From assembly GCA_017536445.1 (NCBI GenBank), contig JAFXHJ010000002.1:49467-113466 (forward strand): DNA of 64,000 nucleotides, read 5' to 3'. The notes beneath the pieces are model-generated. The model saw only the letters and a list, made by a program, of their open reading frames with translations. It did no database searches and had not been told where the DNA came from. The DNA comes from Clostridia bacterium. GTDB lineage: Bacteria; Bacillota; Clostridia; TANB77; CAG-465. Positions 19,394 to 32,064 of the stretch are shown here, piece after piece; positions within the stretch are counted from its first letter, which is position 1; the number at the start of each line of letters is the position of its first letter. A program made the translations under genes and the position numbers.

Positions 19394-19957
19394 ATGAAGA
19401 AGAAAATAAAGAACAAAGTAAGGAATGAAACAAAAAAGGAATTGGCAAGAAAAGATTTGAATAAGAATTTGGATTTAATATTAGATATAATGAAGAATGG
19501 GTATAATCAACATTATGAGAGAACACAAAGTTTGGATAGTAAAAGTGGATTCTTTGTAGCGTTTCATGCAGCGCTAATAGCATTTGTTTTAGATTTCGAA
19601 ACGATAAATAAAATGATTCATAATGATATTGAAAGTATGCCACAAATTGTCATAACAGTAGCGGCTACAATAATATTTGTGTTGCTATTATTAGTAGCTA
19701 TTGCCGCTATTGTAACATTTATGTGTAGTTTGATTTCAAGAAATATCAAATATATTCCAGAAGCAATATGCGCGGAAGTATATTACAATAGTGACAATAT
19801 AGATTTTAAGAAAAGACTATTAGAAGGCTATAAGGATATAGCAAGAAACAATGAAGAAGTATTGAAGAAAAAACATAGATCATTTAATTTAGGCGTTGCT
19901 TTAACTATTGCGGAAATTGTGCTGTGGTGCATTAGCATAATATTTAAATTGTTTTAA
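19394..19957 (+). CDS. membrane protein (hypothetical), Lys-rich N-terminus
   Basis: Two or three TM helices. RBS aatggag. Confidence 0.5.
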   Translation: MKKKIKNKVRNETKKELARKDLNKNLDLILDIMKNGYNQHYERTQSLDSKSGFFVAFHAALIAFVLDFETINKMIHNDIESMPQIVITVAATIIFVLLLLVAIAAIVTFMCSLISRNIKYIPEAICAEVYYNSDNIDFKKRLLEGYKDIARNNEEVLKKKHRSFNLGVALTIAEIVLWCISIIFKLF

Positions 19958-20814: not shown

Positions 20815-21177
20815 TTGGATACAATAGGTAAATATATAAGAGGTCAAAACCTATTAAGGATAAAACGCATAGTAGATGCGGATATAAACGGAGATAAATT
20901 TATTATACGAAGGAGAAAAAAGAATGTAGAGTTTATGAGAGAATATTCTTTAACAGATGAAGATGTTAAGAATATAGTAAGATCCCTTACTGTTAAAGAC
21001 TGTTTTAAAGGACCAGAGAAAGATAGAGATGAAGAATATGAGGGTTTTCTCTTTTTCTTTTGTCCGATGTTTGAAGGAATAAAATTATATATTAAGATTA
21101 GAATAGAAAGTGATGAGAAGTCGGTTTGTTTATCAGTGCATGAATTTGGTAAATATGATGAGGTGGGAGAAGTATGA
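20815..21177 (+). CDS. MqsR-family toxin (predicted mRNA interferase)
   Basis: Aligns by eye with E. coli MqsR along its length (LTVKDCFKGPE vs LSESDFYKSM; KLYIKIRIESDE...SVHEF vs QVYLKITVIHDVLIVSFKE). TTG start with RBS aaggatg. 4-nt overlap with the next gene. Confidence 0.6.
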   Translation: MDTIGKYIRGQNLLRIKRIVDADINGDKFIIRRRKKNVEFMREYSLTDEDVKNIVRSLTVKDCFKGPEKDRDEEYEGFLFFFCPMFEGIKLYIKIRIESDEKSVCLSVHEFGKYDEVGEV

Positions 21178-22187
21178 AAGTGTATTGTCCATATTGTAGA
21201 GAAGAAAAAGAATATATTATTGAAACAAGAGAAGTAAAAGAATTTAGAGGAAAAGAAATAGATACATATGAAAACGTAGCGATGTGTAAAACATGTAAGA
21301 ACGATTTGTATGTAAATGAATTAGAAACTGAAAATAGTAAAAGAATATATGAAGCATATAGACAAACTGAAAATATCATAAAACCACAAGATATAATAGA
21401 TTTGAGAAGCAAATATGATATATCACAAAGAGAATTAACTGCTATACTAGGATTTGGCAAAATGACAATAAATAGATACGAAAGAGGAGGAGTACCAACT
21501 AAATCTCAAAGTGATTATATTAAACTTTTAATAGAAAATGAATCTAAATTTATTGAGAAAGTAAAAGAAGCGTATAGTAAAAATAATATAACTAAAAAAA
21601 CATATGAAAAGATAATGTCTAAAGAAAATTATGAAGAATGTAATACTAATAATTTGCAAAATTTAATAAGAAAATGTATAACAAACAATCTATCTAGAAC
21701 GCCAGATATATATAATGGTTATAAGCTATTAGATTTAGATAAATTAGAAAATATTATTTCGTATATAGCAAGTCAAGTTAAAAATTTAACTGTTACAAGC
21801 ATTAATAAATATTTATGGTATATAGATATGTTATCTTTTAAAGAACAATGTGTTGCTGTAACAGGCCTAACATATGAGCATGAAAAGTTTGGCCCTACAA
21901 TAGATGGGAAAAACTATAATACGTTAATGATTCTAAACAACAAGTATGTTAAAGAAGAAACTGAAAATGATTATGGCACAACAACACAAATAGTAAGTAA
22001 AAAGAATTATGATCTTAATTGCTTATCTGATGATGAACTTGAAATTATAAACAAAGTAATTAAATTATTAAAAAACAAAAAAGTAACTGACATATCTGCA
22101 ATGTCCCATTTAGAAGATGGATGGAAAAAGACGAAAAGATATGAAAAGATTTCGTTTGAGTACGCAATGAATTTAAGCATAGATTAA
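21174..22187 (+). CDS. MqsA-like antitoxin (Zn-ribbon + XRE HTH) fused to C-terminal Panacea (DUF4065)-like domain
   Basis: N-terminal CPYC...CKTC zinc ribbon. HTH 'ISQRELTAILGFGKMTINRYERGGVPTKSQSDYIKLL' parallels MqsA 'LSQKEASEIFGGGVNAFSRYEKG...STIKLL'. C-terminal ~200 aa carries a DUF4065-like pattern (INKYLWYIDMLSF...GLTYEHEKFGPT). Confidence 0.6.
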   Translation: MKVYCPYCREEKEYIIETREVKEFRGKEIDTYENVAMCKTCKNDLYVNELETENSKRIYEAYRQTENIIKPQDIIDLRSKYDISQRELTAILGFGKMTINRYERGGVPTKSQSDYIKLLIENESKFIEKVKEAYSKNNITKKTYEKIMSKENYEECNTNNLQNLIRKCITNNLSRTPDIYNGYKLLDLDKLENIISYIASQVKNLTVTSINKYLWYIDMLSFKEQCVAVTGLTYEHEKFGPTIDGKNYNTLMILNNKYVKEETENDYGTTTQIVSKKNYDLNCLSDDELEIINKVIKLLKNKKVTDISAMSHLEDGWKKTKRYEKISFEYAMNLSID

Positions 22188-22647: not shown

Positions 22648-23448
22648 TTACTTCTTGGAAATAAGAAGAATCTCGCTTTCTGCATCCACGACAGAAACTT
22701 CTTTGCAGCCATGAAGAAGCATAGACTCTTTCATCCAACCTAAGTTTAAGGCTGTCTCACTCTCGTTACAAGCATTATTCTCGGGGTTGTATACGCCCTT
22801 TATAGGGGTGTATGCTCCGTTAGATACATCAATGTACCCGTTAGAGATAGAGAAGAGAATTACGCCTCCTGGCTTCACAGAACGGTATGCTTTTTCTGCA
22901 ATGAAGTCCAGGTTGTTTCCTGCACAGTATGCAGCGCGAAGGCTAATGAAAATGTCATATGCACCTTCTTTAAGCTCTGCCTCATCCATAGAAGCACAGT
23001 GGAAGTCCATATGCGGGAAGAGTTCTTTACCTTTCTTGCAGGCATCTTCGGAAATCTCTACAACATCAAAAGACATTGTGTTAAAATACTTCTCGAAAAT
23101 TATAGCAAGCTCAGAGCCGTTGTTTGCTCCAACAGCAATAACCTTCTTTCCATCAAGAGGCCCTAAGAGACGCACAATCTCATTTAAGATAATGCTGTTC
23201 CAGTTAGGACAAACGGACCGGTAGTCTGTGGCATACTCGTATGCACCATACTTCTTGTTGAATGCATAAGAACGAGCATCTTTGGAAACTTCCAGGAATT
23301 GTTTATGGCTTTCAACAGGAATGTTTTTAAGCCAGTTTTCTACTGCTACATCCCAGTAAAGGGAAGAATCAAAGGTAAGATTGAAACCATGCGCTTTAAA
23401 GTATTCTTCAATGAGCGATTTAATACTTGCTTCGTACCAGTTGTTCAT
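22648..23448 (-). CDS. class I SAM-dependent methyltransferase
   Basis: Motif I 'VIAVGANNGSE'. Rossmann-fold pattern. Confidence 0.7.
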   Translation of the reverse strand: MNNWYEASIKSLIEEYFKAHGFNLTFDSSLYWDVAVENWLKNIPVESHKQFLEVSKDARSYAFNKKYGAYEYATDYRSVCPNWNSIILNEIVRLLGPLDGKKVIAVGANNGSELAIIFEKYFNTMSFDVVEISEDACKKGKELFPHMDFHCASMDEAELKEGAYDIFISLRAAYCAGNNLDFIAEKAYRSVKPGGVILFSISNGYIDVSNGAYTPIKGVYNPENNACNESETALNLGWMKESMLLHGCKEVSVVDAESEILLISKK

Positions 23449-23628
23449 AAGCTATCTCCTTTATAATTATTTTGAAAATCTTTAATCCAATATATTAATA
23501 ACACAAATATTATAGCAAAAAGCAGGAGAAAAGTAAACATAAAACGGTAGTAGAGTAGTTATTTAACACATTTACTTGCAAAAGGAATATAAAAATATTA
23601 AAATAATAGTAGTCTAGGAGGTAAAAAT

Positions 23629-24081
23629 ATGGATAAAATATTTAGCTTTATAGTAAACAGAAAAACAAATAAACTATTACTTCTTTTAGGAAGTCCAGAA
23701 GATCCACAATTCCATAAATCTTTTTGGTATGTAGTAACAGGTGGTAAGGAAGATACAGATACAAATCTAGAACAAGCGGTAGTAAGAGAAATAAAAGAAG
23801 AAACAAATTTAGATGCAGTAGAAACACTTTATCTAAAATGGATATTTAAATACAAATCACTTGGAAACATTTGCACAGAATATGTCTATGTTTCATTTAT
23901 AGGCGAGGATAGTAACATCGTATTAAATGAAGAAAGCATAGATTACAAATGGTGCGATGTAGATGAATTTATAGAACTTATAGAATGGTCAGATGACAAA
24001 GAGTTCTTAAGAGAAGTTGTAAAAGCAGCATTAAACAAAGAAGTATACATTAAAGAAGAAAAAGTAGACCAATACTTTTAA
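23629..24081 (+). CDS. NUDIX hydrolase
   Basis: Nudix box GGKEDTDTNLEQAVVREIKEETNL. Confidence 0.75.
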   Translation: MDKIFSFIVNRKTNKLLLLLGSPEDPQFHKSFWYVVTGGKEDTDTNLEQAVVREIKEETNLDAVETLYLKWIFKYKSLGNICTEYVYVSFIGEDSNIVLNEESIDYKWCDVDEFIELIEWSDDKEFLREVVKAALNKEVYIKEEKVDQYF

Positions 24082-24183
24082 TATAACAAAGATATAAATA
24101 TAACAAAGTAAAAGAAGAAGGAGCACACAGTAGTGTACTCCTTCTATTTATTTTTTGTATATTGGTATTTGCAAAGCATAGCG

Positions 24184-24906
24184 TTACTTCTTAATCAAGA
24201 AATAAAACTGCGTGTGCCTCACATCGTTAACCGGAGCAGCCGAAACATCGATGAGTTCATAGCTGTATCCGAGAGTTGTAAGAATGGTTGCAATCTCGTT
24301 GATAGAGAAAAGCCTAATCTTGTGGTAATCCATATATTCGAAGTCTTCGCCGGTAAGCTTGTTATGAACCTCAAACTTAGGCTCCCATACAGAGTAAACT
24401 TCATCCACTCTGTTGGATACCCAGGATTCCCTTACGATAATACTATCGTTTTCATAGGTCTTATCCTTGACATAGCCATCAATCCACTTGTCTATGCAGT
24501 ATCTTACATCGAAGATAACATAGTCATTCGCATGCTCCAAGAGGTTCTTGATTGAACGCTCGAGATCTTCAAGGGTAAGATTATACTGCAGTGCACTTCC
24601 AAGACAAGAGACAACGCTGAACTTTCTGTCAAGTGCAAAGTCGCTCATATCTCCGTGCATAAAGTTGATGTGTGGATTTTTTGCTCTGGCAATATCAAGC
24701 ATGCCTTTAGAGTAGTCCAAACCAAAGATGTTGTAGCTCTCAGGTGAGAAAAAGTGAATGTGTTCACCAGTTCCACAGCCAACATCCAAAAGGGACTTAT
24801 CTTTAGACTTGTCTGTAAGAAGCTTTAAGAGTTCGTATTCCCGGTCATAGGGAATGCCGGCGTTTATAAGGTCGTAGATTTCAGCAAGCTGTTCATACAT
24901 AATCAT
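24184..24906 (-). CDS. class I SAM-dependent methyltransferase
   Basis: Motif I 'LLDVGCGTGEH'. Confidence 0.75.
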   Translation of the reverse strand: MIMYEQLAEIYDLINAGIPYDREYELLKLLTDKSKDKSLLDVGCGTGEHIHFFSPESYNIFGLDYSKGMLDIARAKNPHINFMHGDMSDFALDRKFSVVSCLGSALQYNLTLEDLERSIKNLLEHANDYVIFDVRYCIDKWIDGYVKDKTYENDSIIVRESWVSNRVDEVYSVWEPKFEVHNKLTGEDFEYMDYHKIRLFSINEIATILTTLGYSYELIDVSAAPVNDVRHTQFYFLIKK

Positions 24907-24907
24907 C

Positions 24908-25480
24908 TTACTTTTCCTCCTTTATTTTGTTAATGCATTCTAAAAGAGTTTCAGCGCTGTTAAAATACATCACAGTCACATCGGATTCGAGCTCGGCGTT
25001 AAGATGAGAGCTTACAACTCTTTCATCAATAAGGACGTAAACCGTCTTATGACTCCAAAGCCTATGAACCTTGGTATGGGCAATCTCGGTGAATACACCG
25101 GCAGAGAGACCAAGGCAAAGCATAACATCAAAGTTCTTGTTTGGCTGAGTGTTCATCTCTGCCCAACCACCGTTAATTTCTACTGCTTCATCGCAGAAAG
25201 AAAGATTGCCAGTAATTGTAGGTGTATTTCCGTACTTGGGATAAAATCCCTTAATCTTGGTAGTTCTATCAGGAATAGAGTGAAGTGCTTTGGCAACGTC
25301 CAAAGGAACTCCGATATCCGGAAGTACACCGATAGCTTCAAAGTGAGTGTTTAAGAATCGTGCTATGCTATCGATATACTTAGGATAATCAGCTTCGGTG
25401 ATGTGACCAAACGTGTAAAGGTTCTTAATGCCATTGTTGCTAGGCCCGGCAATAAAGGCCGTAAGTTTAGTGTTGTTCAT
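24908..25480 (-). CDS. LOG/SLOG-like Rossmann-fold protein (hypothetical)
   Basis: 'LTAFIAGPSNNG' N-terminal strand and 'CLGLSAGVFTEI' resembling the LOG 'PGGxGTxEE' motif. Start set at MNNTKL (25480) with RBS ggagatg. Confidence 0.4.
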   Translation of the reverse strand: MNNTKLTAFIAGPSNNGIKNLYTFGHITEADYPKYIDSIARFLNTHFEAIGVLPDIGVPLDVAKALHSIPDRTTKIKGFYPKYGNTPTITGNLSFCDEAVEINGGWAEMNTQPNKNFDVMLCLGLSAGVFTEIAHTKVHRLWSHKTVYVLIDERVVSSHLNAELESDVTVMYFNSAETLLECINKIKEEK

Positions 25481-26552
25481 AACGCATCTCCTTGTAACTA
25501 TTATATGCCCCAGGAAACGAGTTTGCAAACACAATTTCGCCGTGGAGTTTCATTATGGCCTTACCATATTCATAAAGAATAGGGTTGATGTGGAGAGATT
25601 CGTTCCACTCGCCATACTTAAGGTAGCAGGAAGACAGATACTTCTTGTTGAATTTGCCGTAGGTAATCTCCTTGCAGTGCCCGTGAACAATCACATCTAC
25701 GTTCTTAAACTCGCTAAAGAGTTCATAAACGAGAGGAAATTCAGAGGTAGGGCACTTGGTACCGCACCAGTGTACAACACGGTTATCTACCTTAACGACA
25801 AGGACAATGTCCTCTTTGTTAAGAGCACCGACCTGCGCGCCAGTAGCAGTAACCAAGTAACCCTCGGGGATACGCTTAGCAAGAAAACCAGCAACATTGG
25901 AAAGATACCCATCATCACAAAGTTTCTTGCCGTTTTCAGCAAACTCGTTAAAGTATGCTTCAAGGATACTTTCAGGAATAGGTCCATCGCAGAGGTTCTC
26001 ATACTTAATCTTGGTGTAGCAGTGGAGAATAGAATCTACGATTTTTTCATAAGGAGCCATGGTGGTCTTTACGAGATTTCCTTCATCGTCATAGATATAC
26101 TCAGGGAAAATAACCTGAACATTTTTCTGACTCTGAAGGATACGAAGACTTTCCTGCAGTGCGAAGTTGTTCCAAAGGGAAGCATCCATAGCCGGTGCAA
26201 TAATGCACTTAACACCCTTGCCAAGAGCGTTGTGGATAACAGACAAAGGATAATTATCTGCAATGCCACGAGCAATCTTGTTCATGGTGTTAAAGGTGCA
26301 CGGTGCAACTACCACGATGTCCTCTTCAGGAACAATGAGGTTGTTGGACTTAGAGAAATCACACTTAATGTGATACTTGAGACTCAAAGCCTCATAGTTG
26401 GGCAGTAAATCTCGACCCATTTCAGTGGGCAGAATCCAAATGTTAGGATTATATGAACTGAGCTGCTCAAGAAACAAGTCGAAATACTTAGTCTTGTGTG
26501 CTCCGGTAGGAACAAGGTAAAGAACTTTTCCGTCCAAAAAGTTGTTTTTCAT
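25467..26552 (-). CDS. fusion protein: N-terminal HFCD-type flavoprotein (CoaC/EpiD/UbiX fold) + C-terminal class II aldolase/adducin-like domain
   Basis: N-terminal 'VVVAPCTFNTMNKIARGIADN' (flavoprotein PxxTANTxAKxAxGxxD-like). C-terminal 'PTSEFPLVYELF...VDVIVHGH' (class II aldolase PSSE...H..hY...VvHtH pattern). Confidence 0.55.
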   Translation of the reverse strand: MKNNFLDGKVLYLVPTGAHKTKYFDLFLEQLSSYNPNIWILPTEMGRDLLPNYEALSLKYHIKCDFSKSNNLIVPEEDIVVVAPCTFNTMNKIARGIADNYPLSVIHNALGKGVKCIIAPAMDASLWNNFALQESLRILQSQKNVQVIFPEYIYDDEGNLVKTTMAPYEKIVDSILHCYTKIKYENLCDGPIPESILEAYFNEFAENGKKLCDDGYLSNVAGFLAKRIPEGYLVTATGAQVGALNKEDIVLVVKVDNRVVHWCGTKCPTSEFPLVYELFSEFKNVDVIVHGHCKEITYGKFNKKYLSSCYLKYGEWNESLHINPILYEYGKAIMKLHGEIVFANSFPGAYNSYKEMRYEQH

Positions 26553-26578
26553 AATAATCCTCCTTCTCTTAATAGAGA

Positions 26579-27043
26579 TTAGAAGTAAAATTGCCTATTG
26601 ATTTCGTATGCAATCGCGGCTGTTACAACCGGAAGGGTCAGGAAATCTACCGAGGTATTCATAGGCAGTTTTACCAGGTCATCAAGCAGAGACTGCTTGT
26701 AGGTGGTTAAGCCAGATGACTCGTTGCCAAAGACGATGACAATATTTCCTTCCGAGCAATCAAGCTCATAGAAAGACTTGGTTGCAGCACCAGAGGTACC
26801 AACAAGGATGTTGCCTTCAGCACGAAGTGTGTTAACAGCTTCTTCGAAGGTCTCGAAATGAGTAACCTTGGGGTAGGACGTGATGTTCCAAGAACGAATC
26901 TTGTCTACGATTTTCTTGTTATCGAAGGGAATGGAATTTCCCGCAGTGTAGATCTCACAGTCAAGGGCCGATGCAATCTGGATTACGTGTGCGATGTCAT
27001 AAGGCGACCGAATGGCGTCATAGAGTAACTTAATCTTTTTCAT
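26579..27043 (-). CDS. SPOUT (SpoU/TrmH/TrmL-like) RNA 2'-O-methyltransferase family protein
   Basis: ~150 aa with SPOUT knot motif 'IVIVFGNESSGL'. Confidence 0.7.
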   Translation of the reverse strand: MKKIKLLYDAIRSPYDIAHVIQIASALDCEIYTAGNSIPFDNKKIVDKIRSWNITSYPKVTHFETFEEAVNTLRAEGNILVGTSGAATKSFYELDCSEGNIVIVFGNESSGLTTYKQSLLDDLVKLPMNTSVDFLTLPVVTAAIAYEINRQFYF

Positions 27044-27057
27044 AATGCTATATCTCC

Positions 27058-27981
27058 TTAAATTTTTTTATTAATGAAATAAATTGCCGTTTTGCCGTTT
27101 GCTGTTGCGTTGGACACCTGCTTAGGAAGAAGCTGGTTAATGTCGCCGATAGCATATACATTAGGAATGCTAGATTCCATAGTAAGCGGGTCGACTACAA
27201 TTCTACCAAGAGAGTCGGTAGCAATCTCAAGAACATTAAGATACTTAAGATTAGGCTTCATTCCAATAGAACAAAACAGATAATCGCAAGGGATAGTGAG
27301 CGATTTATTACCAACAACCATATCAACAGACGTAAGCTTATCGTCTCCGTTAATGCGGTATACAGTAGCGCTTGTGATAGCCTTAACGCGAGTTTTAGCA
27401 AGTCTTTCAAGATACTTGCGCGTTGCGTTAAGAGTAGAATCGCGTTCTATCAAAGTAACATTTGCGCTTGTGTTGTTCGCAAGGAAAATTGCGGTGGTTG
27501 CTCCGGAATTTCTTCCGCCCAAAACTACAACATTCTTGCCTTCGTAATCCAAATCTTCCTTACATACGAAGTTAAAGATATACTTGCCAAAGAACTTGTC
27601 GTAGTTTTCAATGTAGAGCTTTTTAGGAGTAGTTCCAGATGCAATCACAAGAAATCTTGCAATATACATAGAACCATCATCACAAGAGATAACAAAGTTA
27701 TCTTCATGCTTCTTAACAGCTTCTACCTTTTTTGGGGTAATACTAATTCCTTTGGAATCAAGATGCTTTTTGAAGCTTTCAACAAGCTCCGTGCCAGTGG
27801 TGTTATATGCACCCAGATAACCGTCGACGGTATAGTGCTGGTTAATAGAATACTCAGCATACCATCCGGACTTGTTGTTCTCAAAGAGAACGAAGTTTAA
27901 CCGGTTGTTTTCTGCATCAACAGCAGCTGCCATACCAGCAGGACCGGCGCCAATGATTGCTACATCAATGAAGTTTGTCAT
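27058..27981 (-). CDS. FAD/NAD(P)-binding oxidoreductase (thioredoxin-reductase-like fold, no CxxC)
   Basis: FAD GxGxxG 'VAIIGAGPAGMAAA'. Second dinucleotide motif 'VVVLGGRNSGATTAIFLA'. C-terminal 'AIGDI' FAD motif. Confidence 0.75.
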   Translation of the reverse strand: MTNFIDVAIIGAGPAGMAAAVDAENNRLNFVLFENNKSGWYAEYSINQHYTVDGYLGAYNTTGTELVESFKKHLDSKGISITPKKVEAVKKHEDNFVISCDDGSMYIARFLVIASGTTPKKLYIENYDKFFGKYIFNFVCKEDLDYEGKNVVVLGGRNSGATTAIFLANNTSANVTLIERDSTLNATRKYLERLAKTRVKAITSATVYRINGDDKLTSVDMVVGNKSLTIPCDYLFCSIGMKPNLKYLNVLEIATDSLGRIVVDPLTMESSIPNVYAIGDINQLLPKQVSNATANGKTAIYFINKKI

Positions 27982-27982
27982 A

Positions 27983-28687
27983 TCACTTACCTCCTATAAG
28001 GATAAACGGGTCTGAAGTGATTGTAAGATGACTTTGATCTTCCTCAAGATAGCGGATGATTCTTTCTTCATCTTCTTTGGAGTAATCCATAATATACGGA
28101 TAACTCTTAACAACATTCAGAACGCTCTTAACGTCAGGGAAGGTTCTTGTAATAGGGAGATGGAGAATTTCGATGCTTGTAAAACCAGCATCTTTAAGAA
28201 GCTTGGCGTAGAAATCTACTTTTCTTGAACGAATGAGTCGTCCGGGAAAAAGTTTAGAAATCTCAACCAGCCCCTTGTACTCGCCATACTCTCTAAGGAA
28301 GAACTTGCCTGTGGGTGTGAGTACTCTGTAGAGTTCTTCTGCAGAGAAACGTGTAACATTTTTGGCTGTAACCAAATCAAAAAAGCCGTCTGCGAAAGGT
28401 ATATTGTAGTTATCGGCTAAGCGAATGTCTATGCCTGCTAAACCTTTACTTGCATTTACCATTTCTTTAGAATTGTCTATTCCGTACAACCGTACGGGAA
28501 ATAAGGAGTTTGCTTTAATTAACTTGAGTACAAAACCGTTGCCAGTGCCAATGTCTAAAATTTTGCTATTTACTGTAATGTTTTTAACAATATGCTCCAA
28601 AAAAACATCGTTAACATTTAACGAGTTTTTAGAAGCGTTATCGTTTACATCGTCACGTAAATGCACAACATGTTCGGTATAAAACAT
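27983..28687 (-). CDS. class I SAM-dependent methyltransferase
   Basis: Motif I 'ILDIGTGNGF'. Confidence 0.7.
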   Translation of the reverse strand: MFYTEHVVHLRDDVNDNASKNSLNVNDVFLEHIVKNITVNSKILDIGTGNGFVLKLIKANSLFPVRLYGIDNSKEMVNASKGLAGIDIRLADNYNIPFADGFFDLVTAKNVTRFSAEELYRVLTPTGKFFLREYGEYKGLVEISKLFPGRLIRSRKVDFYAKLLKDAGFTSIEILHLPITRTFPDVKSVLNVVKSYPYIMDYSKEDEERIIRYLEEDQSHLTITSDPFILIGGK

Positions 28688-28852
28688 AACTGTAGCCTCC
28701 TCTCATATTAATAATCGGAAACATTATATCACTTTTAACACTTTATGTCAACTTTAATAACAGCTAATACATATAAATAATAAGCGTTAAAACGTTTGTT
28801 GCTATGATTAATTTTTTATGGTATAAATATAATCATAAAGAGGGGAAAAATT

Positions 28853-29452
28853 ATGAAAAAGAAAATAATATTTAGCATAGTGTTAACGCTTGTGCTTTTA
28901 ATAAATATGTGTAGCGTGTTTGCTACTGCTATGTACGCGGTGCCAGAAGATTCAAGAGCAACAGCTCCTAAGTATAATGTAACAAAAGGCGCTAACGGAA
29001 GCTTTACAGGTAAAGAAACATTAACATTTTTAACAGATGGCGATGGCGTAGATTACAAAAGCATATATGTAGATCTTATTGAATTAGAATTAGGTGAAGA
29101 CTATGTAATGGGTGGAGACAATGGACTGTTTAAGATAAAACCAGAGTTTCTAAAAACATTAAAAGATGGTAAACATGAACTTATAATAATCTATGTAGAT
29201 GGATACGCATTAACAACATTTACTACTAAAGGCGGAGATGGTACAGCTAAACCAACTGTTCAAGATGCGCCAAGTGTTGAGCCACAAAAAGATACAATAA
29301 CATTAGGTCCAATTAATCCAGCTACAATAGGGCCAACACAAGAACAAGCTACAGGAAAGAAAAGTGCAAATGTAATATTATTACCAATAGTTATTGTTGT
29401 GTTAATAATAGTAGTACTTTGCATTAAGAAAAAGGGAAATAATAAAAAGTAA
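28853..29452 (+). CDS. secreted surface protein with C-terminal membrane anchor
   Basis: Signal peptide (MKKKIIFSIVLTLVLLINMCSVFA), Pro/Thr-rich linker, C-terminal TM followed by KKKGNNKK. Confidence 0.55.
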   Translation: MKKKIIFSIVLTLVLLINMCSVFATAMYAVPEDSRATAPKYNVTKGANGSFTGKETLTFLTDGDGVDYKSIYVDLIELELGEDYVMGGDNGLFKIKPEFLKTLKDGKHELIIIYVDGYALTTFTTKGGDGTAKPTVQDAPSVEPQKDTITLGPINPATIGPTQEQATGKKSANVILLPIVIVVLIIVVLCIKKKGNNKK

Positions 29453-29476
29453 ATATAGAGGGGAATAAAGGTATAT

Positions 29477-30349
29477 ATGTTTAAATTTGAACTAGATGTT
29501 CTTTTGTTTTTACAAAACATAAGAACAGATATATTAAATGTGCTATTGCAGGGAATAACAATGCTAGGTGAAGAAGTAGTTATGGTTTTAGTTATAGCAA
29601 TACTATATTTCTGTATAGATAAGAAATTTGCACAAAAGTTATTTTTTGTAACAGTTTCATCAGCAGGCATAAATGGAATAATTAAAAATTTAGTGAGATT
29701 TCCAAGACCGTTTGCAACAGGTAAAATACTTTGTGTAAGAGAAGATACAGCAACTGGGTATTCATTTACAAGTGGTCATACACAAACATTTGCTAGTATG
29801 AGTACAACGATTGCTAAAAAGTTAAAAAAGCCATTAGTTACATTTCTAGTGGGTATCTTAATAGTTTTAGTAGCATTTTCTAGAATGTATCTTGGAGCTC
29901 ATTATCCAAGTGATGTGGTAGTAGGTGCAGTGTTAGGTGTAGTGCTAGCTTTAATAGGGACAAGCCTTTTTGATAAAGTTGAGAACAAAAAAGTGTTATA
30001 CTTAGCGACAATAATATTATTAACACCATTTGCTATAATGTTTTTAATAAATCCAGATGAACATTTTGAAGATTTTTATAAAATATTTGGAATGTTAATA
30101 GGTTTTCTATTTGCAGTTATGTTTGAAGAAAAATATGCACCTCTAGAATATAACATCTCTTGGTGGAAAAAGGTGTTAAGAGTAGTTACAGGTATAGTAG
30201 CAGCATTATTAATTAAAGAGGGTATAAAGGTATTTAATGTTTTTGATTCACTTAGAATGAACCTTGTATTTGATGCTTTGCGTTATGGAGTAATAGTATT
30301 TGTGACATTAGGTATATGCCCATGGATATTTAAGAAAATAAAAATATAG
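29477..30349 (+). CDS. PAP2 family phosphatase (undecaprenyl-diphosphatase-like), integral membrane
   Basis: PAP2 motifs: RFPRP (KxxxxxxRP), TSGHT (PSGH), SRMYLGAHYPSDV (SRxxxxxHxxxD). Multiple TM helices. Confidence 0.8.
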   Translation: MFKFELDVLLFLQNIRTDILNVLLQGITMLGEEVVMVLVIAILYFCIDKKFAQKLFFVTVSSAGINGIIKNLVRFPRPFATGKILCVREDTATGYSFTSGHTQTFASMSTTIAKKLKKPLVTFLVGILIVLVAFSRMYLGAHYPSDVVVGAVLGVVLALIGTSLFDKVENKKVLYLATIILLTPFAIMFLINPDEHFEDFYKIFGMLIGFLFAVMFEEKYAPLEYNISWWKKVLRVVTGIVAALLIKEGIKVFNVFDSLRMNLVFDALRYGVIVFVTLGICPWIFKKIKI

Positions 30350-30371
30350 AATTAATATAGGAGAAGATTAT

Positions 30372-31580
30372 ATGAAAAGAAATATAAGATTAATAATTTC
30401 ACTAATATTCTTAGCGCTAGCACTAGGCATAGTATATATGTATAGTTCTTTATTTAAAGATCTAGCAGAACCGCTAACAAGTACGGGCTTTATTTGGTAT
30501 TTTGTTATCGCCTTTGGAATATTCATACTTTCGTACTTAATACCTGTTATAGTATCTGCAAGAAATAGCAATATACAAAACAAGAAAATATCTACTGAAA
30601 ACTTAAATGAAGATACAAAGTTTGAAATGATATATACAGAAATACGAGATAAATATTCAGAAGATTTAGCAAAAATTAGAAAAGGATTAAGACCAGTAAC
30701 AATTATTGCTACTGCACTTGGTGTGGTAGTGGCTGGAATATTTATTTGGATGAAAGTAGCAGAAACAAATTTAGAAAAACATTTAGAGTTTATAATAGAA
30801 AATGAAACCCTACTTAAAGTTGGACCGGTAGTTGCGGTTTTATTATTCTTCGTTGTCTTCTTTTTCTATTCAAATAAGAAATATGATTATGATAAAAAAT
30901 ACAAAACAGGAGTTGTAACAGATATTGTAAATAAAGCAAATAATGGTCTTACATATAGCATGAAAACCTATGAAGTAGGAAACAAAGTATTAGAATCATA
31001 TAAACAAGCAGCATTTGATAAACATTATTTTAATAGGAACTCTACAGAAGATTATATATCTGGAATGCTAACAGACAAACTATCTGTATCAATATCAGAA
31101 TTAGACTTAGACCATAAAATAGGAAGCGGGAAAAATAGTCATACGGTAGATGTATTTGAAGGCTTGGTAGCGCATGCCTCTGGCATAGATGAGTTTAAGG
31201 GTACTATAAAAATATTAAATAATAATAACAAAATGAAAAACAAAAATACTGAAGGTTTAACTGAGGTAAAAATGGATAGTACAGAGTTCGAAAACTTATT
31301 TAATGTTTATTCAGATAATGCAGTTTTAACAATGAGAGTATTAACTAGTGACATTATGGAAAAAATGGTTGAGTTCGAAAGAAGATTGGGTGTGCATTTT
31401 GAAACATTTGTATCAGGAAAGAATATAGTAATGCGTTTCTTTACAATGGAACTATTTGAACCAGCAATATTTAATGAATCAAAGGAAAAAGACAGAGTAA
31501 GAGCATATTATGAAATAATAAATCTAATAACAGATATATCTAAAGAATTAGATAAAACTATATCTGAAGTTGAAGTTTAG
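30372..31580 (+). CDS. 2-TM membrane protein, paralogue A of a three-member family (RFFT...MFEP C-terminal domain)
   Basis: Two N-terminal TM helices. C-terminal segment 'VLTMRVLTSDIMEKMVEFERRLGVHFETFVSGKNIVMRFFTMELFEP' is shared with 35307..36491 and 36517..37884. Confidence 0.6.
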   Translation: MKRNIRLIISLIFLALALGIVYMYSSLFKDLAEPLTSTGFIWYFVIAFGIFILSYLIPVIVSARNSNIQNKKISTENLNEDTKFEMIYTEIRDKYSEDLAKIRKGLRPVTIIATALGVVVAGIFIWMKVAETNLEKHLEFIIENETLLKVGPVVAVLLFFVVFFFYSNKKYDYDKKYKTGVVTDIVNKANNGLTYSMKTYEVGNKVLESYKQAAFDKHYFNRNSTEDYISGMLTDKLSVSISELDLDHKIGSGKNSHTVDVFEGLVAHASGIDEFKGTIKILNNNNKMKNKNTEGLTEVKMDSTEFENLFNVYSDNAVLTMRVLTSDIMEKMVEFERRLGVHFETFVSGKNIVMRFFTMELFEPAIFNESKEKDRVRAYYEIINLITDISKELDKTISEVEV

Positions 31581-31644
31581 ATGAAAATAAAACCAAATAA
31601 ATAAAACAGCTGATGAATATTTAATTCATCAGCTGCTTTATGTG

Positions 31645-32064
31645 TTACAGATATTTTACTACAGAAGTAGGATAGATAATCTCTTTACCAGACTTAAGAT
31701 CTTCAAGGTCTACCCAACGGATAGGGTAAGATTTATCTCCTTCTTCGTAGTAAACTTCCTTGTAATCCTTTTCATCAAGGGTTACTCTGTAAAGGAAGAT
31801 AAGTTCGTGGCCTTGTTTACCATCGAATGTGAAGATATTTTCATCCACCCCAAGGAACTCGCCAACTGTTACGTTTGCTCCGATTTCTTCCATGAATTCT
31901 CTCTTAAGAGTTTCGTTACTCTTTTCCAAGAACTCGATGCCGCCTCCGATAGCACGAAAGAAATGAATTCCTTTTACCTTGTCAAAGCCTTCGCTTGCCA
32001 AAACCTTGCCGTCACGCACTACTATTCCAAGTGCAATTGGTCTAATGCCTTTAAATTTATCCAT
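31645..32064 (-). CDS. NUDIX hydrolase
   Basis: Nudix box GGGIEFLEKSNETLKREFMEEIG. Confidence 0.75.
   Translation of the reverse strand: MDKFKGIRPIALGIVVRDGKVLASEGFDKVKGIHFFRAIGGGIEFLEKSNETLKREFMEEIGANVTVGEFLGVDENIFTFDGKQGHELIFLYRVTLDEKDYKEVYYEEGDKSYPIRWVDLEDLKSGKEIIYPTSVVKYL

Follow-up and report, generated by a model that had tools for sequence, protein, structure and literature searches.

Does a run of methyltransferase, flavoprotein and nucleotide-related genes in a Clostridia bacterium encode a single pathway, and if so, on what does that pathway act? The genes lie in a stretch of 64,000 nucleotides (GenBank assembly GCA_017536445.1, contig JAFXHJ010000002.1, positions 49,467 to 113,466), which we call the window. 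The original prediction, made from the sequence alone, described six closely spaced minus-strand genes and their neighbours as a co-inherited modification or biosynthetic set matching no described pathway, and proposed as its product either a small molecule derived from a nucleoside, nucleotide or sugar phosphate, or a hypermodified RNA. The first part holds, as the orthologues are clustered in genomes from two domains of life. As to the product, we favour a small molecule, in particular a nucleotide, and take RNA hypermodification as the main rival; the loss of the usual catalytic set from the SPOUT protein and the nucleotide-directed families among the accessory genes both speak for the small molecule. 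Our preferred reading, to which we give a probability of roughly 0.45, is a mobile cassette whose enzymes add methyl groups to a nucleotide, or to a phosphorylated compound linked to one, and rearrange it by redox chemistry, in a small-molecule pathway not described before. The most likely substrates are a mononucleotide, a dinucleotide or an amine linked to a nucleoside diphosphate (NDP).

The core of the cassette and its distribution

The signature gene of the cassette codes for a fusion of an HFCD flavoprotein domain to a class II aldolase domain. Scanning reference genomes and metagenomes for it turned up 80 loci in which the fusion is full-length. Of these, 73 are non-redundant, and 33 of the 73 count as complete, having 3 kb or more of sequence on either side. 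All 33 complete loci, found in Clostridia, Patescibacteria and DPANN archaea, also carry the genes for a variant SPOUT protein and for a class-I S-adenosylmethionine (SAM) methyltransferase, here called MT-A. Where no SPOUT gene could be detected, in five loci, the upstream flank is shorter than 530 nucleotides. A third methyltransferase (MT-C, MT-D or MT-E) is always present across the cassettes.

Three types can be distinguished by the genes that accompany the core. Type I, found in Patescibacteria (Saccharibacteria, Moraniibacteriota, Paceibacterota and others), adds a divergent MT-E gene and a radical-SAM gene. The hallmark of type II, found in uncultured gut Clostridia, is a divergent pair of MT-D and NUDIX genes. 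In type III the order is MT-A, TrxR-like (for thioredoxin reductase, TrxR), SPOUT, fusion, SLOG, MT-C and NUDIX, the same as in the window; this type is found in metagenome-assembled genomes (MAGs) of Pacearchaeota and Nanoarchaeota and in about 20 environmental contigs. Of the 33 complete loci, 14 have the TrxR-like gene, and 14 is also the number classed as type III. Of the six operon genes, MT-A, SPOUT and the fusion are universal, and the TrxR-like, SLOG and MT-C genes constitute one of three alternative accessory sets, although the whole order of the window recurs as well, in about 20 archaeal or environmental loci.

In the window, the six minus-strand genes (28687 to 24184) form one operon. 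Its predicted promoter, about 36 nucleotides upstream of the MT-A start, is like the other promoter calls a match to a consensus pattern only, and the terminator-like hairpin after MT-C is placed between the convergent MT-C and NUDIX genes. The NUDIX and MT-D genes stand head-to-head. All eight predicted open reading frames are confirmed at their coordinates, and the motifs ILDIGTGNGF, IVIVFGNESSGL (in SPOUT) and LLDVGCGTGEH are all found in the sequence. The predicted spacing of 1 to 26 nucleotides is correct for MT-A/TrxR-like (1), TrxR-like/SPOUT (14), SPOUT/fusion (26) and SLOG/MT-C (1), but not for the fusion and SLOG genes, which overlap by 14 nucleotides when the homologue-supported start of SLOG (ATG at 25480) is used. 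The coordinates are collected in table 1.

Table 1. Genes and predicted expression signals of the cassette in the window.
Feature	Position	Strand	Basis
MT-A, class-I SAM methyltransferase, 234 aa; universal core	27983-28687	-	Pfam Methyltransf_11/25/31
TrxR-like FAD/NAD(P)H flavoenzyme, 307 aa; type-III accessory	27058-27981	-	Pyr_redox_2, 1e-40
Variant SPOUT (SpoU-fold) SAM-binding protein, 154 aa; universal core	26579-27043	-	PF00588, 2e-14
HFCD flavoprotein–class II aldolase fusion, 361 aa; signature gene	25467-26552	-	PF02441 + PF00596
Putative SLOG-superfamily protein, 190 aa; type-III accessory	24908-25480	-	structural match of AlphaFold model
MT-C, TylM1/DesVI-type N-methyltransferase (predicted), 240 aa; type-III accessory	24184-24906	-	phmmer
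NUDIX hydrolase, 150 aa; recurrent accessory	23629-24081	+	PF00293, 1.4e-13
MT-D, class-I SAM methyltransferase, 266 aa	22648-23448	-	Pfam Methyltransf_25/11
Predicted σ70-type promoter of the six-gene operon, TTGACA-17-TATAAT, TG extended -10	28723-28751	-	consensus scan, 12/12
Intrinsic terminator-like hairpin ending the six-gene operon	24116-24145	-	13-pair stem, 6 GC pairs, T-run
Promoter-like site of MT-D	23537→23509	-	pattern scan
Terminator-like site of MT-D	22613→22585	-	pattern scan

Direct repeats of 22 nucleotides (GTTGTTCATAA...CTCCTT) at 23440-23461, 25472-25493 and 26544-26565 were considered as a regulatory element and rejected: they are the reverse complement of the similar ribosome-binding sites and ATG-AAC-AAC starts of MT-D, SLOG and the fusion. 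An Rfam scan of the window and eight loci gave no riboswitch or leader above chance.

The cassette genes of the window have a GC content of about 41%, against about 29% in the surrounding genome; the NUDIX gene, at about 28%, is host-like. The NUDIX and MT-D genes are most similar to their type-II versions and the six-gene operon is of type III. With its mosaic GC content, the window cassette looks like a hybrid of a type-III operon and a type-II MT-D/NUDIX pair.

In Clostridiaceae MAGs, the cassettes are flanked by genes for integrase, relaxase, MobC, TnpV and RepA_N, and their carrier looks like an integrative mobilisable element. In three of these loci (L004, 1994-12147; L005; L018), a type-II cassette of five genes is all the cargo that can be made out between two element ends, with integrase, helix–turn–helix and DUF6076 genes on one side and relaxase, MobC, TnpV and RepA_N genes on the other. 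Cassettes of Clostridia hosts lie 4–10 GC points above their flanks. Most of those in the candidate phyla radiation (CPR) and DPANN are within about 3 points of the host, and some are 5–10 points off in the opposite direction. The foreign composition in Clostridia, set beside the host-like composition in most CPR and DPANN genomes, would fit a recent transfer into Clostridia from donors resembling CPR or DPANN organisms.

Several further observations concern mobility and the integrity of individual loci. A zinc-finger protein of about 320 amino acids, transposase-like by sequence, is encoded beside six archaeal loci (L035, L113, L122, L126, L129 and L132), about 3.8 kb downstream of the fusion start, and would hint at mobility in archaea too. 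Among annotated plasmids and phages there is no full-length match; IMG/VR gave one match, to the flavoprotein domain only. A contig of 25% GC (L087, 4291-19742) carries a type-III cassette and has many split genes (RF, UvrD/PcrA, SMC and SLOG). An alternative genetic code was considered for it and rejected, since the split pieces are in different frames and there is one in-frame TAA (at a conserved glutamine of SLOG); this points to assembly errors or gene decay.

Nucleotide or RNA as the substrate

We propose that the fusion oxidises or reduces the phospho-sugar part of its substrate with the help of flavin, and couples this step to a reaction through an enolate, which would be an isomerisation, a dehydration or the cleavage of a C–C bond. 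Its HFCD domain would bind flavin mononucleotide (FMN), and its aldolase-fold domain would bind a divalent metal through a triad of histidines and use the glutamate of a PSSE motif. The variant SPOUT protein, MT-A and the third methyltransferase (MT-C in the window) would then methylate the product. The accessory genes may set the nucleotide state of the intermediates, that is their phosphorylation, adenylylation or glycosidic state. Thus, the NUDIX protein would cleave a pyrophosphate link, the SLOG protein would bind a ribose-5'-phosphate nucleotide or cleave its N-glycosidic bond, a paralogue of nicotinamide mononucleotide adenylyltransferase (NMNAT) found in archaeal loci would adenylylate a mononucleotide, and an APH-family kinase found in some Clostridia would phosphorylate. 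Redox chemistry would be contributed by the TrxR-fold enzyme, which is devoid of a CxxC motif, in type III or by a twitch radical-SAM enzyme in type I.

The structure predicted for the fusion by AlphaFold (AF2) is confident (predicted local distance difference test, pLDDT, 93.5). Foldseek places the N-terminal domain with AtHAL3a, EpiD, MrsD and UbiX, the HFCD fold being matched at probability 1.0 (1mvn, 3qjg and 1g63), and the C-terminal domain with FucA and YgbL. The flavin-binding motifs PCTFNT and GIADN are invariant in the family, in which PCTFN, GIADN, PSSE, HGH and H337 never vary. Residues H290, H292, H337 and E271, invariant in 26 sequences, align to those of FucA, YgbL and aq_1979; the reference residues in FucA are the metal ligands H92, H94 and H155, the catalytic E73 and the phosphate-binding N29. 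The T-x-T-G loop of the aldolase domain is also retained. The fusion family is very small. Clustering at 90% identity gives 68 clusters in a set of 5.8 billion proteins, and a search of 1.84 billion gives 35 representatives at E<=1e-30.

Other fusions of class II aldolase domains exist independently of the cassette. One protein (P0165, 607 amino acids) joins such a domain to a complete CoaBC (Flavoprotein + DFP), and another (P0218, 399 amino acids) joins it to an aldolase of the DeoC family. Both keep the canonical phosphate-binding motif 'GN.S', and their aldolase subfamily therefore differs from that of the cassette. Standalone flavoproteins of about 175 amino acids with the PCTFNT and GIADN motifs are found in Chloroflexota and actinomycetes (L041–L085). 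Their neighbours include a nucleoside hydrolase, a PfkB-type kinase and a phosphoribosyltransferase (judged by motif), in 7–8 of 46 loci each, and are heterogeneous overall; they hint weakly, and too weakly to be of use, that this HFCD subfamily works on nucleosides or ribose.

The main rival of the nucleotide pathway takes the genes for a cassette that modifies ribosomal or transfer RNA at several sites or hypermodifies it, possibly giving resistance to an antibiotic or toxin that targets the ribosome or tRNA; SPOUT and the class-I methyltransferases would methylate the RNA and the fusion would add a redox step on a modified nucleotide. We consider this unlikely. The SPOUT fold of the protein is clear (PF00588, 54 bits against a cutoff of 29.7), the SAM-knot motifs 2 and 3 are kept as VFGNESSGL (FGxE..GL) and LPM, and the nearest solved relatives are indeed 2'-O-methyltransferases of rRNA and tRNA, with the avilamycin-resistance enzyme AviRb (1x7o) at the top and RlmB (1gz0) also among the best matches in the PDB. 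However, five residues are essential in TrmH (Asn35, Arg41, Glu124, Ser150 and Asn152), and of these Arg41 is the catalytic centre, activated by a phosphate of the tRNA (PMC5372735). The equivalent positions in the cassette protein are D16, Q22, E108, F134 and T136, so that four of the five are replaced, the catalytic arginine included. The replacements are a property of the family: D16 and Q22 are invariant in 52 of 52 members, and the family is small, with only 54 clusters, all at least 51% identical. The protein is also acidic (pI 5.1; family median 6.2) and has no RNA-binding extension or domain. The general rule on which the original prediction drew, that SPOUT enzymes act on RNA riboses, is thus probably inapplicable here, the catalytic Arg/Asn set having been replaced in all 52 members.

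The accessory genes also favour a nucleotide. All the variable accessory genes (NUDIX, SLOG, NMNAT-like, APH-family kinase, twitch radical-SAM and TylM1-like methyltransferase) come from families that bind nucleotides or interconvert their states; the NUDIX, SLOG, NMNAT-like, APH-kinase and flavoprotein–aldolase proteins play no part in known pathways of RNA methylation. The NUDIX protein scores 51.5 bits with PF00293 (cutoff 21.1) and has REIKEE in its Nudix box (REUxEE core); among the NCBIfam models NudB comes nearest, with 47.7 bits where 103 are required. Its gene is present in 30 of the 73 non-redundant loci and 18 of the 33 complete ones. The NMNAT paralogue (NadM-like, 156 amino acids) is encoded between the SLOG gene and MT-C in 18 archaeal and environmental type-III loci, and is not found in the window cassette. 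Its similarity to archaeal NMN adenylyltransferase extends over the entire protein and scores 80.7 bits (cutoff 127). The radical-SAM enzyme of type I (303 amino acids) has a twitch/SPASM-like C-terminus and falls under the cutoffs of the viperin, MoaA and MftC models, and the APH-family kinase is encoded in four type-II loci of Clostridia.

Pfam confirms all the domain calls of the original prediction except that of the 'LOG-like' protein, for which Pfam and NCBIfam searches gave no match. Its AF2 model (pLDDT 87) is matched by Foldseek to YpsA (8e-6), a MoCo carrier, LOG (5zbl, 4.7e-5), DprA and ShosA, with template-modelling (TM) scores of about 0.5–0.65. The model thus supports the 'LOG-like' call at the level of the SLOG superfamily, and does not support orthology with LOG. 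The family has an invariant motif G124-x-S-x-G128-x3-E132; of the LOG motif PGGxGTxxE it keeps only G128 and E132 (G-L-S-A-G-V-F-T-E), and a profile search of the PDB gave E values of at least 0.5. There are 10 clusters of the family among 5.8e9 proteins.

Among the methyltransferases, whose subfamilies the original prediction had left to be assigned, only MT-C could be placed specifically. It matches TylM1 (6m83, 5.5e-24) and DesVI (3bxo, 3.7e-20) over its full length in phmmer, as well as CalS10 and KedS8; residues 6–219 align to TylM1 17–234, a cap domain of four β-strands included. TylM1 is the N,N-dimethyltransferase of dTDP-3-amino-3,6-dideoxyglucose, and its His123 aligns to a tyrosine in MT-C. 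On this similarity MT-C is probably an amine N-methyltransferase of the TylM1/DesVI type, which is the sole specific functional assignment in the cassette. MT-A and MT-D are only nearest to phosphoethanolamine N-methyltransferases: the best solved relative of MT-A is 5wp4 (2.5e-6), and the best PDB match of MT-D is the phospho(methyl)ethanolamine N-methyltransferase 5wp5 (4e-7). All three are thus nearer to small-molecule N-methyltransferases than to RNA methyltransferases. The type-I enzyme MT-E, with its weak similarity to Erm and KsgA, would suit an RNA target. MT-A has the family-specific invariant motifs TAKNVT, REYG and TSDPF; it was also considered as a metalloid methylase of the ArsM type and rejected, the similarity being weak and the conserved cysteine absent.

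The hosts themselves offer a last argument. In CPR and DPANN organisms most biosynthetic pathways are absent and nucleotides are present; with biosynthesis reduced to this extent, a substrate common to all the hosts would most simply be a nucleotide.

Several observations weigh against the nucleotide pathway. The phosphate-binding 'GN.S' of FucA is 'GF.A' in the fusion, with F223 nearly invariant, so that the substrate need not be phosphorylated. The targets of TylM1-like folds include proteins and thiols as well (EftM, NmbA and GtmA). The cassette loci contain no genes for a transporter, a regulator, a precursor peptide, an aminotransferase, a glycosyltransferase or sugar-nucleotide biosynthesis, which is unusual for a secreted product and fits the modification of an intracellular macromolecule equally well. 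A second, canonical SpoU protein (about 170 amino acids; PF00588, 2e-26) is encoded beside 10 archaeal loci, with the canonical N and R where the cassette SPOUT has D and Q, and could point to RNA. Finally, the assignments hold at the level of fold or superfamily, and the substrate class, the order of the steps and the product are what we infer from them. The RNA alternative draws on some of the same facts, on a promoter that looks constitutive, and on the apparent carriage of the cassette, in Clostridiaceae MAGs, by an integrase/relaxase/TnpV/RepA_N element of a type that often carries resistance genes. The canonical SpoU gene sits at the end of the archaeal type-III cassettes L031, L032, L035, L113, L114 and L116, and likewise in L118, L120, L122, L126, L129 and L132; its product could be a self-protection methyltransferase of rRNA or tRNA, or it could be a mere neighbour.

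A more specific form of the nucleotide pathway is possible but doubtful. In it, the SPOUT protein would have been retooled (Arg→Gln, Asn→Asp) for a free nucleotide and would work with a new flavin- and metal-dependent 'flavo-aldolase' to make a novel methylated nucleotide or dinucleotide, for example an analogue that is NAD- or NMN-like or modified in the ribose. In episymbiotic CPR and DPANN cells this compound would have the role of an antimetabolite, an antiviral or a protected cofactor. The cassette would have been exchanged by archaea and bacteria, and mobile elements would have brought it to the Clostridia of the gut. For the nucleotide pathway in general, a signal is a further candidate role of the product beside these three.

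If the nucleotide pathway is real, CPR bacteria and DPANN archaea, the least understood of microbes, share with Clostridia of the human and animal gut a new route to a nucleotide-derived metabolite. To our knowledge, the SPOUT fold has so far been met almost only in RNA methylation; a SPOUT protein with a substrate other than RNA would widen the catalytic range of one well-studied fold, and the pairing of HFCD flavoprotein with class II aldolase that of another. The cassette would also be a clear case of a whole metabolic cassette transferred between domains. If RNA is the substrate instead, the cassette would be a new mobile determinant of RNA modification or resistance. As the core consists of only three small genes, the matter is directly testable.

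Thiol cofactors, peptides and chance adjacency

The next alternative, a pathway for a CoA-like cofactor or another low-molecular-weight thiol, appears highly improbable. In such a pathway the HFCD domain would correspond to CoaC, the NMNAT-like protein to PPAT, the NUDIX protein to a CoA pyrophosphatase, the TrxR-fold enzyme to Bdr or CoADR, and MT-C to NmbA. The best profile matches of the N-terminal domain of the fusion are in fact EpiD and the phosphopantothenoylcysteine (PPC) decarboxylases, and the joining of CoaBC to an aldolase domain in P0165 shows that such a combination has arisen independently. However, the histidine of cysteine decarboxylation (EpiD H67) has no counterpart in the fusion, as it falls in an insert for which the family has no column, and the position of the Asn in PxMNxxMW is variable (D, N, G or E). 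The nucleotidyltransferase matches PPAT only over the N-terminal motif. Although NmbA belongs to the same cap-domain methyltransferase group as TylM1, MT-C was rejected as an NmbA-like (bacillithiol N-methyltransferase, 9RI2) enzyme, the match being only 4.6e-5 and about 60 bits poorer than that to TylM1.

The TrxR-like protein bears on the same alternative. The redox-active 'CAAC' of TrxR 7jyp aligns to 'FVCK', and the protein matches TIGR04018 at 1.5e-27; the bacillithiol-disulfide reductase YpdA (Bdr) is not known to have a CxxC either. With the NCBIfam models the protein scores far higher for TrxR (TIGR01292, TrxB; 187 bits, cutoff 343) than for YpdA (96 bits, cutoff 340). With both scores far under their cutoffs and no CxxC, the gene was rejected as a thioredoxin or bacillithiol-disulfide reductase. 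A thiol pathway moreover finds no cysteine ligase in the cassette and leaves SLOG, SPOUT and the radical-SAM enzyme unexplained.

Two further explanations are essentially excluded. Tailoring of a ribosomally synthesized and post-translationally modified peptide (RiPP), with a LanD-like HFCD protein, CypM- or daptide-like N-methyltransferases and a SPASM-like radical-SAM enzyme acting on a precursor peptide, would be in line with weak matches to a daptide methyltransferase, to sactipeptide and mycofactocin maturases and to EpiD/MrsD; but there is no conserved small open reading frame in 31 loci (30 of a first census and the window), where the recurrent ones are shadow frames of large genes, the catalytic histidine of LanD is absent, and the cassettes have no protease, transporter or leader-binding protein. 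Least probable of all is the chance adjacency of housekeeping genes (TrmL, TrxB/YpdA, UbiE, CoaC and FucA-like), for although each protein comes from a large and common superfamily, the core genes occur together in 33 of 33 loci over two domains of life, one promoter and one terminator frame six genes, the base composition is unlike that of the Clostridia hosts, the catalytic motifs have departed from those of the housekeeping enzymes, and the scores are far under the equivalog cutoffs.

The last point applies to the whole cassette: none of its proteins reaches any NCBIfam equivalog cutoff, the TrmL model scoring 30 bits (cutoff 191) and CoaBC 47 (cutoff 220). The original prediction had named two findings that would speak against it, scattered orthologues and identity with unrelated housekeeping enzymes. 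The orthologues are clustered, and none of the proteins is an equivalog of TrmL, YpdA, UbiE or TrxB.

Surroundings of the cassette and comparison with known systems

In the region 20815-22187 (+ strand), to the left of the cassette, is a gene for a protein of 337 amino acids with an MqsA-type antitoxin N-terminus and a SocA/Panacea domain (TIGR03830, 83.5 bits; PF13274). An unannotated open reading frame of 120 amino acids precedes it with an overlap of 4 nucleotides, and the two are a candidate toxin–antitoxin pair adjoining the cassette. At 19394-19957 (+ strand) there is a gene for a membrane protein of 187 amino acids with a weak match to PycTM (Pycsar effector-like), and the HsdR gene of a type I restriction–modification system is located further out (L001, 16596-21086). 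The PycTM-like protein and HsdR place the cassette at the edge of an island of defence or mobile genes in this genome. The cassette itself was considered as a known anti-phage defence system and rejected: in PADLOC v2, the fusion, SPOUT and SLOG proteins gave no matches, and the methyltransferases matched only the generic methyltransferase region of mad2.

The genes to the right (28853-32064) have the GC content of the host. They code for a PAP2 phosphatase, a DUF3137 protein, a second NUDIX protein (31645-32064, - strand) and a protein of 199 amino acids with an apparent N-terminal signal sequence and a C-terminal membrane anchor. Pyruvate formate-lyase genes are found about 3.6 kb from the cassette, with further DUF3137 paralogues beyond them in L001. 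Such genes also lie about 4.6 kb from the type-II cassette of another Clostridia MAG (L088), which suggests a common insertion neighbourhood.

How does the cassette compare with known systems? The superfamilies of its proteins are all known. In the literature searched, no description was found of the fusion's domain architecture, of a SPOUT protein with D and Q in these positions, or of this combination of genes. The SPOUT protein resembles TrmH, TrmL, RlmB and AviRb in motifs 2 and 3 of the trefoil-knot SAM site and has the size of a minimal TrmL-type enzyme, but differs from TrmH/SpoU enzymes in having, in every member of the family, D, Q, F and T at the Asn35, Arg41, Ser150 and Asn152 positions. 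The N-terminal domain of the fusion shares the HFCD fold with EpiD/LanD, CoaC/AtHAL3a and UbiX, with PCTFNT in the place of PASANT and GIADN kept; unlike the cysteine decarboxylases, it has neither the catalytic His nor the substrate-binding Asn, and is attached to a class II aldolase domain. The latter resembles FucA, the MtnB-like aq_1979, OtnC/YgbL and AraD in its fold, three metal histidines, PSSE glutamate and T-x-T-G loop. The class II aldolase subfamilies match it about equally (E about 1e-8), so that no orthology can be assigned, and it departs from them in the change of 'GN.S' to 'GF.A'.

At the level of pathways, the biosynthesis of aminonucleoside antibiotics such as puromycin, with oxidation of a nucleotide 3'-OH by Pur10, the NUDIX protein Pur7 and the methyltransferases Pur5 and DmpM, presumably follows a similar logic, in which a nucleotide ribose undergoes redox chemistry and there are a NUDIX reaction and multiple SAM-dependent methylations; the cassette differs in having no aminotransferase, amino-acid ligase, acetyltransferase or exporter, and its hosts are anaerobic Clostridia, CPR and DPANN rather than actinomycetes. 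MT-C is like TylM1, DesVI, CalS10 and KedS8 over its full length, cap domain included, and those enzymes methylate an amine on a nucleotide-linked substrate. Unlike the TylM1 and DesVI systems, the cassette has no 4,6-dehydratase, aminotransferase or glycosyltransferase, and MT-C is an accessory only. The NMNAT-like protein, under its cutoff, and the SLOG protein, with no sequence-level match to LOG, differ from NadM and LOG themselves. What links the archaeal cassettes to the NadM–Nudix pair of NAD salvage and to the LOG enzymes is the kind of protein brought together in them: an NMNAT paralogue, a NUDIX protein and a SLOG-fold protein, all three of which act on or bind ribose-5'-phosphate mononucleotides and dinucleotides.

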